Shown here piece after piece: positions 17,202-38,274 of a DNA stretch of 64,000 nt (the first letter of the stretch is position 1; the number at the start of each line of letters is the position of its first letter). The notes beneath the pieces are model-generated. The model did no database searches, had not been told where the DNA came from, and worked only from the letters and a program-made list of their open reading frames with translations. Source of the DNA: Chthoniobacteraceae bacterium (GTDB taxonomy: Bacteria > Verrucomicrobiota > Verrucomicrobiia > Chthoniobacterales > Chthoniobacteraceae); contig CANIWM010000012.1 of assembly GCA_947471505.1 (NCBI GenBank), forward strand, positions 15,867 to 79,866, given 5' to 3'. Made by a program: the position numbers and the translations under genes.

Positions 17202-18014
17202 GTGCGCTTTTCCATCGTCACACCAAGTCTCCGGCAGCTCGATTGGCTCCGCCTTTGCGTCCGCTCAATCGAGGATCAGGCTGTGGAAAAGGAGCATTTC
17301 ATCGAAGACGGCGGCACTGGCCCCGAGCTGGAGGAATGGGTGCGCGGCCAGACGAAGGCGCAGCTTTTTGTCGAGCAAGACGGCGGCATCTACGATGCGC
17401 TCAACCGTGGCTTTGCGCGAGCCACCGGCGATGTGCTGGCGTGGCTGAACTGCGATGAACAATACCTCCCCGGCGCGCTCGCCGCCGTCGCCGCCGAGTT
17501 CGCGGCGCGGCCCGAGCTCGATGTCCTCCTTGCGGATAATCTCATCGTGGACAACACCGGCAGCTACCTCGCGCACCGCTTCTCGCTCATCCCCGAAGCC
17601 AGCCAATGCTGGTGGCGATTCCCCGTATCGAGTTGCGCCCTCTTTTTCCGCCGCCGCGTCTGGCAGCCTTTCGACACGCAGTGGAAGTCCTCCGGCGACT
17701 GGTGGTGGTTCATGGCGATGCTCCAGCGCGGGGCGAAAGTGGGCGTCCTCCGCCGCTTCGTCGCCACCTTCGGCGAGACGGGCGAAAACCTCGGACTCTC
17801 CCCCATCACCGCCACCGAGCACGCCGCCATCGCCGCCGCCCGTCCTTTGTGGGCGCGAGTTCTCGCCCCCGCCATCCTCATCCGCCACAAAGCCCGGATG
17901 CTCGCCTCGGGTGCCCATCGCGTAGAGCCTTTCGACTACCAAGTTTTCACCCGGACCAGCCCTAGCCGCCAGACGTTTCACGTAAAAAACCCCACCGCCA
18001 ACTGGCGGGCGTGA
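17202..18014 (+). CDS. glycosyltransferase family 2 protein
   Basis: N-terminal GT2 motif (FSIVTPSLRQLDWL...IEDGGTGP, DALNRG, and the D-x-D-like NCDEQY). Confidence 0.7.
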   Translation: MRFSIVTPSLRQLDWLRLCVRSIEDQAVEKEHFIEDGGTGPELEEWVRGQTKAQLFVEQDGGIYDALNRGFARATGDVLAWLNCDEQYLPGALAAVAAEFAARPELDVLLADNLIVDNTGSYLAHRFSLIPEASQCWWRFPVSSCALFFRRRVWQPFDTQWKSSGDWWWFMAMLQRGAKVGVLRRFVATFGETGENLGLSPITATEHAAIAAARPLWARVLAPAILIRHKARMLASGAHRVEPFDYQVFTRTSPSRQTFHVKNPTANWRA

Positions 18015-18190
18015 TTAAAACACGGTCCAAATGCCGCGAAGCGGAAAGTAGCTCGCGAGTCCCATCGCGGCCCTATGACTCCCGCGAAGCGGCACTTCTT
18101 CATTCGTGAGGCTTCGCCGTCGCAAAACGCCGCGAAGGGACTCGCGAGCTACTCTCTTGGATCACGTTTTGATCACGCCGCCAACTGGCG
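17995..18190. mobile_element. MITE/REP-like palindromic element (~170 bp) flanked by exact 13-bp direct repeats CCGCCAACTGGCG
   Basis: Direct repeats sit at 17995-18007 (the last codons of the GT2 gene) and 18178-18190. The interior has imperfect terminal inverted repeats (GCGTGATTAAAACACG / CGTGTTTTGATCACG), a 16-bp internal inverted repeat (GTAGCTCGCGAGTCCC at 18048-18063 and GGGACTCGCGAGCTAC at 18138-18153) and two exact CCGCGAAGCGG mini-hairpins plus a related CCGCGAAGGG motif. Confidence 0.5.
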
Positions 18191-18212
18191 ACGGTGAGCC
18201 TCCATCGTGGGC

Positions 18213-18248
18213 AAAAAAAGAGCCGGAGCCCTTGCGGACACCGGCTCT
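18213..18248 (-). terminator. intrinsic terminator of the 18270..18788 gene
   Basis: On the minus strand, an 8-bp perfect stem (AGAGCCGG/CCGGCTCT) with a 14-nt loop is followed by T7 (plus-strand AAAAAAA at 18213-18219). Confidence 0.6.
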
Positions 18249-18269: not shown

Positions 18270-18788
18270 CTAATCCGCCTTTTTAGCAGGCTTCGCGTCT
18301 TCTTTCTTCGCGGGTTTAGCATCGTCCTTCTTTTCTGCTTTTGGGCCGAACTTCGTGATCTTCACCACTTCATATTCGGTGCCGTCTGCATTCTTCTTGG
18401 TGCGGAGGCCAGCGACGGTGTCGCCAGCCTTGATGTCCTCGAACTTCGCAGCAGCGTCACCGTTTTTGATCTCGGTGGTCGCCGTCACGATATGTTTCAC
18501 GAGTTTGCCTTCCTTAGTTTTCTGTGTGAACGACTTCCCAGCAGCATCGATCTCGTCGGCGCGGGCGTTCATGGGTTGAGGCTTGGCGGCCTTCGCGTCG
18601 TCTTTCTTCGCGTCAGCGGCAGGAGCAGCGGCAGGAGCGTCGTCCTTCTTTGCATCAGCGGCTGGAGCAGCAGGAGCGGCTGGCGCTGCGGCTGGTTTAG
18701 CGGCTTCTTTTTTCTTCGCTTGCGCGAATGCGGAAGGCCCGACTGAGAGAGCGAGGCCGAGTGTGAGACTGAACAGGATTTGTTTCAT
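18270..18788 (-). CDS. secreted low-complexity Ala/Pro/Lys-rich protein
   Basis: Clear signal peptide MKQILFSLTLGLALSVGPSAFAQA, followed by repeats (KKDDAPAAAPAADAKKDDAKAAKP), then a small globular region. Own terminator downstream. Confidence 0.65.
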   Translation of the reverse strand: MKQILFSLTLGLALSVGPSAFAQAKKKEAAKPAAAPAAPAAPAADAKKDDAPAAAPAADAKKDDAKAAKPQPMNARADEIDAAGKSFTQKTKEGKLVKHIVTATTEIKNGDAAAKFEDIKAGDTVAGLRTKKNADGTEYEVVKITKFGPKAEKKDDAKPAKKEDAKPAKKAD

Positions 18789-19222
18789 GGGTTTGTTTGT
18801 TTGTTGTTTTGTGAGGCGCGCCAGCAGGCCCGGAGAGGGCGCTAATCTCGCGCCCGTCCGCTCTAGTCCCCGGTTTTTGGTGGGTCAAGCGAGAATCATC
18901 ACCGCGCACCGCATTTTTCCGCGGGCGATTCTCAGGGTTGCCGCCGCAGCGCCCCGATCCGATCCACCATCCTGGCAACAGTTGTTATCACCCCCCATTT
19001 ACGCCGAAGGCGTTGGGGTTCGGAAGGCTGAACCCTCCGGGTAAGAATCACGCTCATTGAGCGAGATTGGAAATCTCGCCTCCTCTGCGCTCGATTGCGC
19101 GGGCTATCCACATACGGCGGCCCCTCTACTTCACGGCATTTGTCCACTTTACCCTCCCGCTCTCTGTTAGCCGGCCGTGGAACGTCCTTGTTCCACGGAG
19201 AAATGGGCTTTTTCTCTGATGG

Positions 19223-19255
19223 CATATACTCATTCCGTCACAGAATGAGTATATG
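19223..19255. promoter_or_regulatory. perfect 13-7-13 palindrome CATATACTCATTC-N7-GAATGAGTATATG (candidate operator)
   Basis: Read directly from the sequence. The half-site GAATGAGT(A/T)T is the core of the downstream direct-repeat array. Confidence 0.5.
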
Positions 19256-19537
19256 CGGGGGCGGAATCTGTTTAATCTGCGAGTGGATGGGTTTAGGGCA
19301 GGATGGAATCTGCTTTGGCTGCGGCAGGATGAGTTTAACCTGCGAGGGGATGAGTTTAGGGCGGGATGAAATCTGTTTTGGCTGCGACAGGATGAGTTTA
19401 GAATCCGACGGAATCCATTTAGCCGCCAATCGAATGAGTTTAGGAAACGAGGGAATGAATTACGGAGGGAAACTCATGGGTATATTTTGCAACGGAATGA
19501 ACTGCATTTCCGGCGGAATGGGTTGTAAAGTAGTGCG
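19256..19537. repeat. array of about 13 degenerate direct repeats with ~21-bp period (core GGATGAGTTTAGG / GAATGNNTTTA)
   Basis: Includes two 63-bp higher-order copies at about 90% identity (19277-19339 and 19340-19402), each made of three 21-bp subunits. Located in an ~890-bp intergenic region between divergent genes. Confidence 0.7.
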
Positions 19538-19608
19538 AATAGTAGCGGGGCCGTCTCGGCCCCGAGCGACACTGTGTGTCGCAGGGGGCGGGACGCACCC
19601 TCTACTTC
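19538..19608. repeat. GC-rich multi-hairpin module (AATAGTAGCGGGGCCGTCTCGGCCCC...), copy 1 of 2 in this window
   Basis: Contains the hairpin GGGGCCG-TCT-CGGCCCC and the palindrome GCGAC...GTCGC. Copy 2 at 43958-44043 shares 26 of 27 nt (one extra C in copy 2) over 43958-43984. Confidence 0.6.
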
Positions 19609-19678
19609 CGCGCATTATTTTACCGCTCACCGCGCGCCGAGCGTGCAACGCGCAACTTCTTCCGGTAGGAGGCGGGGC

Positions 19679-37612: not shown

Positions 37613-38274
37613 GCAGGGCCGCCGCGCCGTTGTCCAGCCATGCGGCGGGAAAACGAACTTCCATGCCAGCGGCGCCCATTATTCGATGGCCCATACGATT
37701 CCGCTTGTAGCTGTGTGCGCGAGGACGATGATTCGCGTTGCCAAAGTCGCGTTTCTTCCACAAGGCGCGACACGGGGGACCCAATTGAGGGTGCGCAGGT
37801 CCAAACTGCCACCAGGGGCGCAGGTAGCCAGCCAAATGGCTGCCCGGTGACTTCCTTCACCGAGCCCGTCAGCTAACTCCGTCGGTATAGGGAAGGTGTC
37901 CTAGGGACGCCGTCCGCGGCACTCGCTGCGTACGGGGTCAACCGATGCCTGCAACATCATATTGCTTACTGGCATCGGCGGAAAAATACGCCGGCGGTGT
38001 CCGTTCGCGCACAGACACATACTACATACAGAAAATGAGACATCATCGTCGTGGCCTGCTTGCCGCAGGCTTCATCATCGCCGCATCCACCGCCGACACC
38101 GTTTGGCTTGCATGGGCACAACCTCAAATCGCTACCGGCCTCGCGCTGGATCAGGTCAACGGCGGAGCGCCTGCGTGGCGCGAGCTTCTCGCGTGGCAGG
38201 CGACTCATCAATGGCCGCACTTTGTTGCGCAGGCCGTTGTCGCTGCCACTATTGCGTGGTGGATTCGTCCTATC

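Follow-up and report, generated by a model that had tools for sequence, protein, structure and literature searches.

A strain-polymorphic insertion, very probably of an ISKra4/ISMich2-type MITE, within the 3' end of a glycosyltransferase gene of a Verrucomicrobial genome

Introduction

Correia elements of Neisseria, ERIC/IRU, RUP and the RPE of Rickettsia are non-coding, single-hairpin elements of 100-200 bp that lie between genes and sometimes alter gene ends; Correia elements duplicate TA. Prokaryotic Mutator-like elements are bounded by inverted repeats of 18-39 bp, whose terminal C is conserved, and are flanked by direct repeats of 8 or 9 bp, and those of the ISMich2 group carry two ORFs joined by a -1 frameshift (Guerillot et al. 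2014, PMC3942029). GTAG REPs have been reported in the PVC superphylum (Planctomycetes-Verrucomicrobia-Chlamydiales), including the verrucomicrobium Opitutus terrae, and REP dimers sometimes lie within longer palindromes (Di Nocera et al. 2013, PMC3733652).

Here we compare with these systems a palindromic element at the 3' end of a GT2 glycosyltransferase gene, in a window of 64 kb, by which we mean the whole stretch of DNA that was analysed. An initial annotation had proposed a non-autonomous mobile element at this position, a proposal now backed by an empty site, by related copies elsewhere and by the lack of a transposase gene in the window. We find that it is very probably a ~173-bp non-autonomous DDE transposon (MITE) with ISKra4/ISMich2 ends, inserted in the last codons of GT2 with a 9-bp target-site duplication (TSD).

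Results

Filled and empty alleles of the GT2 gene end

The 13-mer CCGCCAACTGGCG has two exact copies in the 64 kb, at 17995-18007 and at 18178-18190, and none of 100 dinucleotide-preserving shuffles contains any match; both the positions of the repeat and its improbability by chance are as the initial annotation had them. The 13-mer is near-palindromic, with 11 of 13 positions self-complementary, the direct-repeat match being better at 13/13. Its left copy codes for the end of the GT2 gene (17202..18014, + strand), a 270-aa ORF that matches Pfam PF00535 with E = 4.9e-11, and the protein ends in ...PTANWRA-stop, in line with the TANWRA-stop first described. The last codon, GCG (Ala), and the stop codon TGA (18012-18014) are derived from the element. 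Most of the ~44 closest GT2 orthologues end in ...W(R/I/V/Q)R-stop (...PTxxW(R/I/V/Q)R-stop), several with a short tail beyond, and not one of them has Ala as its C-terminal residue.

Read in frame, the right repeat together with 18191-18197 (+ strand) gives AAC TGG CGA CGG TGA, or NWRR-stop, the same as in the empty-site allele; because this frame resumes straight after the second 13-mer, the ancestral gene end lies, displaced, downstream of the element. The comparison with related strains suggested in the initial annotation yields that empty site in L003, a metagenome contig from a related strain whose GT2 is 97% identical and which reads ...AAAAAACCCCACCGCCAACTGGCGACGGTGA... at L003:5780-5815. 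Its GT2 3' region has a single 13-mer, the 170-bp element is absent and the protein ends in ...NWRR-stop, with flanks that are colinear with those of the window on both sides at 93-97% identity. Eight contigs with the exact window GT2 protein were examined, and the filled allele is present in the window, in L001 (MAG GCA_947477685.1) and in another assembly, L002. Set against the empty allele of L003, the window has thus gained 183 bp, consisting of the element and the duplicated target. The insertion has moved the former stop codon and 3' region 183 bp downstream, replaced the C-terminal Arg of GT2 by Ala and supplied a new stop codon from the terminal inverted repeat (TIR), and it is a recent, strain-polymorphic MITE event.

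Just outside the element, as first annotated, lies an intrinsic-terminator-like hairpin followed by a T-run (18211..18248, hairpin 18219-18248, - strand), which belongs to the convergent 172-aa gene (18270-18788, - strand) and is found in the filled allele as well as in the empty one. Beyond this gene, the window and L003 differ in a strain-variable segment, which occupies 18938-19642 (705 bp) in the window and 1.8 kb in L003 (L003:6534-8354), where it includes small ORFs, a DUF2335 gene and a duplication of a promoter/5' region. Exactly at the left breakpoint of this segment, at L003:6534-6556, is a solitary TIR, GGGGGTGTGATTAAAAGTGGAAC, of the class found on the window element; no partner end was found for it, and its position suggests an element-mediated rearrangement beside the GT2 locus in the empty-site strain. 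The window's version of the variable segment contains a 63-bp tandem repeat at 19270-19422 (2.1 copies, 80-89% identity) with GGATGAGTTTAG-like sub-motifs. Elsewhere in the window, a full-length c-di-AMP riboswitch at 37729-37902 (+ strand; RF00379, 48.5 bits) is the only Rfam match above the gathering score.

Anatomy of the element

The 170 bp between the two 13-mers form one long imperfect palindrome of nested inverted repeats; the element is about 170-174 bp long (~173 bp) and has no ORF of its own. Its outer arms (18008-18030 and 18157-18179, 23 nt) are 83% complementary, and its inner arms (18044-18071 and 18129-18156, 28 nt) are 93% complementary and share a perfect 16-mer, GTAGCTCGCGAGTCCC, which is the 16-bp internal inverted repeat noticed in the initial annotation. 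The imperfect terminal arms described there are present as well, with one correction: the string given for the right end, CGTGTTTTGATCACG, is not literal, and the sequence reads CACGTTTTGATCACG. The left TIR (18007..18030, + strand) is GGGCGTGATTAAAACACGGTCCAA, whose first 14 nt match the end found in the family and the IS, GGGTGTGATTAAAA, at 13/14; the right TIR (18157..18180, - strand), reverse complement CGGCGTGATCAAAACGTGATCCAA, matches the family terminus at 12/14 positions. With up to 2 mismatches allowed, the element's two ends are the sole matches to GGGYGTGATTAAAA in the 64 kb. These ends (GGGCGTGATTAAAA...) belong to the TIR class GGGTGTGATTAAAAGTGGA.

Inward of the left TIR, the mini-hairpin CCGCGAAGCGG (18034..18044, + strand) lies within a palindromic extension, GCGAAGCG, which is weakly conserved and found ahead of the core in most copies. 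Exact copies of CCGCGAAGCGG are at 18034 and 18082 and a related third is near 18130, the three being spaced 48 bp apart; these are the two exact copies and one variant reported before. The most conserved part of the element, a core of 111 bp (18045..18155), consists of inverted GTAG-tagged arms at 18045-18071 and 18129-18155 on either side of a 57-nt spacer, which has a central hairpin at 18084-18117.

On both strands the element is predicted to form one long hairpin (z about -10 relative to shuffles), and its predicted stability as RNA is ~ -118 kcal/mol. It sits between two convergent genes, and such a hairpin may influence transcript stability, termination or read-through. Rfam has no family for the element at either gathering or permissive thresholds. 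The 64-kb window holds no second copy of the element, and tblastn with the partner ISKra4-type transposase finds no transposase gene there, which makes the element non-autonomous.

A dispersed family with 9-bp target-site duplications

The search for further copies, another suggestion of the initial annotation, used an internal 17-mer as query against one genome per species. It returns 60 loci, about half of them chance matches in unrelated phyla; six Verrucomicrobiaceae/Verrucomicrobiota MAGs account for ~28 loci with family copies, 14 of these being in MAG GFS_12560, and many of the copies have TIRs and flanking direct repeats. Identity between the window element and the family copies is 72-91%, the copy in L013 aligning to element positions 1-149, and the family has in common an asymmetric layout in which 14-15 nt separate the left TIR from the core and 0 nt separate them on the right. 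At least 14 copies have the TIRs GGGTGTGATTAAAAGTGGAAT at both ends. The inner halves of the window TIRs diverge from the family consensus, and no other copy was found with the exact window TIR variant, AAAACACGGTCC. All 27 family copies examined appear intergenic; the neighbouring ORFs are convergent in 8 cases, tandem in 10 and divergent in 2, and no strand or orientation bias relative to adjacent genes is seen among these 27. A subfamily (L014, L045, L061, L047, L025 and L028) has a 22-nt insertion, TTGCCTTTCAGGCTACCTYCGGT, in the right arm of the core; its elements are ~184-205 bp long and most have perfect 9-bp TSDs.

This distribution bears on the reading that the region is not mobile and that it evolved in place, as a structured 3' UTR or by local duplication. 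Such an origin would suit the single copy in the window, the very stable predicted fold and the position in a gap between convergent genes, a common place for hairpins. Against it, the 97%-identical strain has an empty site, homologous copies with TSDs of their own occupy unrelated loci in several genomes, and neither an Rfam match nor covariation is found, and we regard a local origin as extremely unlikely. The initial annotation had reasoned that the same region in related genomes, with no further copies anywhere, would point to a local structure; since L003 is empty and ~28 loci carry copies, the genomes present the opposite picture, that of a mobile element.

The length of the TSD was surveyed in short TIR-bounded elements from genome and metagenome loci (n = 28), with ends set at GGGY...RCCC. 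Perfect 9-bp direct repeats abut the ends in 11 of the 28, and 3 more match at 8/9; in some copies the repeat seems to be 10-12 bp long because the flank chances to continue the GGG/CCC ends. In the window, the 9-bp family register is CCAACTGGC, at 17998-18006 within the left copy of the direct repeat (17995..18007) and at 18181-18189 within the right (18178..18190), where CCG is common to the left flank and the right end and G to the left end and the right flank. Given the 9-bp TSD of the family and these identities of flank and end, the 13-bp window repeat is best read as the 9 bp of CCAACTGGC plus 4 chance bases matching the GC-rich ends; a longer stagger in the window event alone is conceivable. 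The target-site duplication of the initial annotation thus survives with the support of the empty site, its length becoming the family's 9 bp in place of 13. Family ends read GGG.../...CCC, which the left end of the window element fits, and its right end is ...GCCG in the 9-bp register, with G for the conserved C.

A true 13-bp TSD would follow if the element were instead a MITE of another IS family, for example of IS4-type, where duplications are 11-13 bp, with ends GGCGTGATT.../...AATCACG. The maximal direct repeat is indeed 13 bp, and we estimate from base composition that 4 extra bases would match by chance in only ~1% of insertions. However, the ends agree with those of the ISKra4-type TIR class at 13/14 positions, homologous copies have 9-bp TSDs, with GC-rich flanks accounting for apparent lengths of up to 12 bp, and no IS4-like partner is seen. 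An origin from another IS family is in our view very unlikely, and we retain an ISKra4/ISMich2-type MITE with a 9-bp TSD.

Candidate full-length partners of the ISKra4/ISMich2 type

Used as a query against metagenomes, the TIR identifies 47 loci. Most of these elements are short (106-480 bp), and their interiors are unrelated; the 111-bp core is absent from the short elements found in this way. Because the interiors are unrelated within one TIR class, that class mobilises many different passengers. In L080 and L082 the same TIRs lie 1.43 kb apart around two overlapping ORFs, and L080, L082 and L112-L114 all have GGGTGTGATTAAAAGTGG at both ends with a transposase gene between. Fused by a -1 shift, the products of L080 and L082 are 437 and 439 aa long and match the NCBIfam model for the ISKra4 family, NF033572 (E = 3e-57 and 1e-58), across profile positions 17-422 of 422. 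Their scores, 195-199 bits, are slightly below the curated cut-off of 205; the fused transposase also matches Pfam UPF0236. L080 and L082, only ~65% identical in DNA, each have an A9 run at nt 363, likely the -1 frameshift or slippage site that joins orfA and orfB. Judged by their ORFs, profile matches and ends, L080 and L082 are ISKra4-family, Mutator-like insertion sequences with the ISMich2-group arrangement.

Homologues of the L080/L082-type transposase number in the thousands, mostly on IS-sized contigs, as expected of a multi-copy IS. The full-length ISs come from unbinned metagenome contigs, and we infer their presence in Verrucomicrobiaceae from the MITEs; no multi-copy ORF, as a candidate transposase, is seen among the Verrucomicrobial family loci. 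The full-length IS contigs show no TSDs, probably because their flanks are assembly chimeras: L112 and L113 contain the same IS and share the same left flank while their right flanks differ, so that short metagenome contigs of this multi-copy IS are evidently chimeric. At L083:2682-2740, the right and left ends of ISKra4-like elements are exactly 9 bp apart (GCGTGGCTG), an arrangement that could represent tandem copies sharing a target duplication or a circular-intermediate junction.

The 111-bp core

The arms of the core, AAAGTAGCTCGCGAGTCCCTTCGCGGC and its complement, are 24-27 nt long and essentially invariant over 18 distinct copies, and the 57-60-nt spacer is freely variable except for a central GCGAAGC/GCTTCGC hairpin. 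None of 31 pairs shows a compensatory change in these 18 copies; the stems are merely invariant, so the absence of covariation neither supports nor excludes an RNA role. A single arm, AAAGTAG followed by CTCGCGA-GTCCCT-TCGCGG, is predicted to fold alone at -6.9 to -10 kcal/mol (z -2.6 to -6.5), with the last G of the GTAG tag paired in the predicted fold. A cognate RAYT gene, if there is one, would be expected to be flanked by hairpins of the form GTAGCTCGCGAG or GTAGCTCGCGAGTCCCTTCGCG.

The core also occurs outside elements of the window's TIR class. It is found in elements of a second TIR class, GGGTGTGATTAATTCTACTT (L029, L026 and L045), at no fewer than 8 core-only loci, where no flanking inverted repeat rises above the shuffled control and which are mostly 3' of genes, and as single arms and a 68-nt mini-doublet. 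Core variants are seen at L021:3250-3290, L009:1300-1500 and L032:6830-7010, among them the 68-nt mini-doublet, whose loop is 17 nt long, and copies in which the right arm has an extra TCCCGACGTGTCGGGA hairpin. In a Planctomycetaceae MAG, and so in another PVC-group phylum, L015:4462-4484 is a single hairpin, AGTAGCTCGCGAGTCCCTTCGCGAGC, of 23 nt identical to the core arm, directly 3' of an apparent ORF stop (TAG). At L036:835-945, and at the orthologous locus in L011, a core-only copy lies ~50 nt upstream of the RBS/ATG of a very large ORF; the two copies are nearly identical, and neighbouring proteins of the two MAGs are 70-98% identical.

These features raise the question of whether a RAYT tyrosine transposase moved the entire element as a REPIN, with the outer inverted repeats and the direct repeat incidental. 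Each core arm opens with GTAG, a stem-loop comes next, and the two arms face head to head across a spacer of 57 nt. The spacers drift and the arms stay invariant, and at 8 or more loci, mostly downstream of genes, the core is found without TIRs. All of this agrees with the GTAG-REP dimers of PMC3733652. The window insertion, however, has ISKra4-type TIRs and a target duplication. To our knowledge, Y1/RAYT transposition (IS200/IS605-type mechanisms) makes no target duplication. Moreover, no RAYT/Y1 transposase lies beside five solo core arms, the neighbours of solo arms being a Bax-inhibitor-like protein, a PIN/RHH pair, a transporter and a GMC oxidoreductase, and tblastn with E. coli TnpA-REP (identical to PDB 4ER8), a query that itself has no Pfam match at E<0.001, finds no match in 740 kb of DNA around the loci. 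RAYT-driven movement of the whole element is very unlikely, and a REPIN can fit the core as cargo and not the event at the GT2 locus. That the core is a REP doublet (REPIN) is a hypothesis by analogy, as no RAYT gene was found beside these arms or in these 740 kb.

Discussion

The insertion of an ISKra4/ISMich2-type MITE into the end of GT2 is an event of an ordinary and well-documented kind. A transposase supplied in trans by a full-length IS elsewhere in the genome, itself made from two ORFs via a -1 shift at the A9 run, would bind both TIRs of the MITE, excise or copy the element and integrate it at a 9-bp staggered cut, the repair of which would give rise to the target duplication; the cargo would be the 111-bp doublet of inverted GTAG-tagged hairpins. 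In this uncultured Verrucomicrobiaceae lineage, the locus offers clean filled and empty alleles, a duplicated target, a rewritten gene end and a likely transposase family, all of them obtained from sequence alone. An annotation of this locus should treat the GT2 stop codon as derived from the element and should not take the 170-nt hairpin for a regulatory RNA of the GT2 gene.

The core, with arms identical across species, is together with its relation to the MITE shell the one lead of some novelty. We suggest only tentatively, and with more doubt than belief, that it is an independent, REPIN-like replicator of Verrucomicrobiaceae which ISKra4/ISMich2 MITEs of at least two TIR classes have repeatedly taken up as cargo. 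If so, a RAYT substrate would gain a second, DDE-based route of spread, in a chimeric 'REPIN-in-MITE', and the core arms would be held invariant by element-level selection.

Among the known systems, the 100-200-bp hairpin elements Correia, ERIC, RUP and RPE differ from the window element in their TIRs, TSD and hosts, and there is no sequence similarity. GTAG-REP dimers (Di Nocera et al. 2013, PMC3733652), or REPINs in the concept of Bertels and Rainey, are comparable to the 111-bp core and not to the element as a whole. Like them, the core has outer GTAG tags, a stem-loop in each arm, inverted arms 57-60 nt apart and a structured spacer; this spacer is within the 20-100-bp criterion, the arms are more conserved than the spacer, and the core is likewise extragenic and found as singlets, mini-dimers and dimers. 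It differs in that no RAYT gene was found and that the last G of the tag is predicted to be paired, and at the GT2 locus it has moved as a passenger of a DDE-type MITE with a TSD.

The closest counterpart of the element as a whole is the ISKra4/ISMich2 group (p-MULT 4, PMC3942029), of which we found no MITEs described in the literature searched. The window element differs from members of this group in having no transposase and an unrelated palindromic interior, and the inner halves of its TIRs have diverged. The likeness lies in the 9-bp direct repeat, present in 14 of 28 short elements and in the same register in the window, and the partner IS shares the layout of two ORFs with a -1 frameshift. 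The phyla listed for p-MULT 4 in PMC3942029 exclude that of the present host (Verrucomicrobiaceae), and the elements described here would extend ISKra4/ISMich2-type elements, together with their MITEs, to the Verrucomicrobia.
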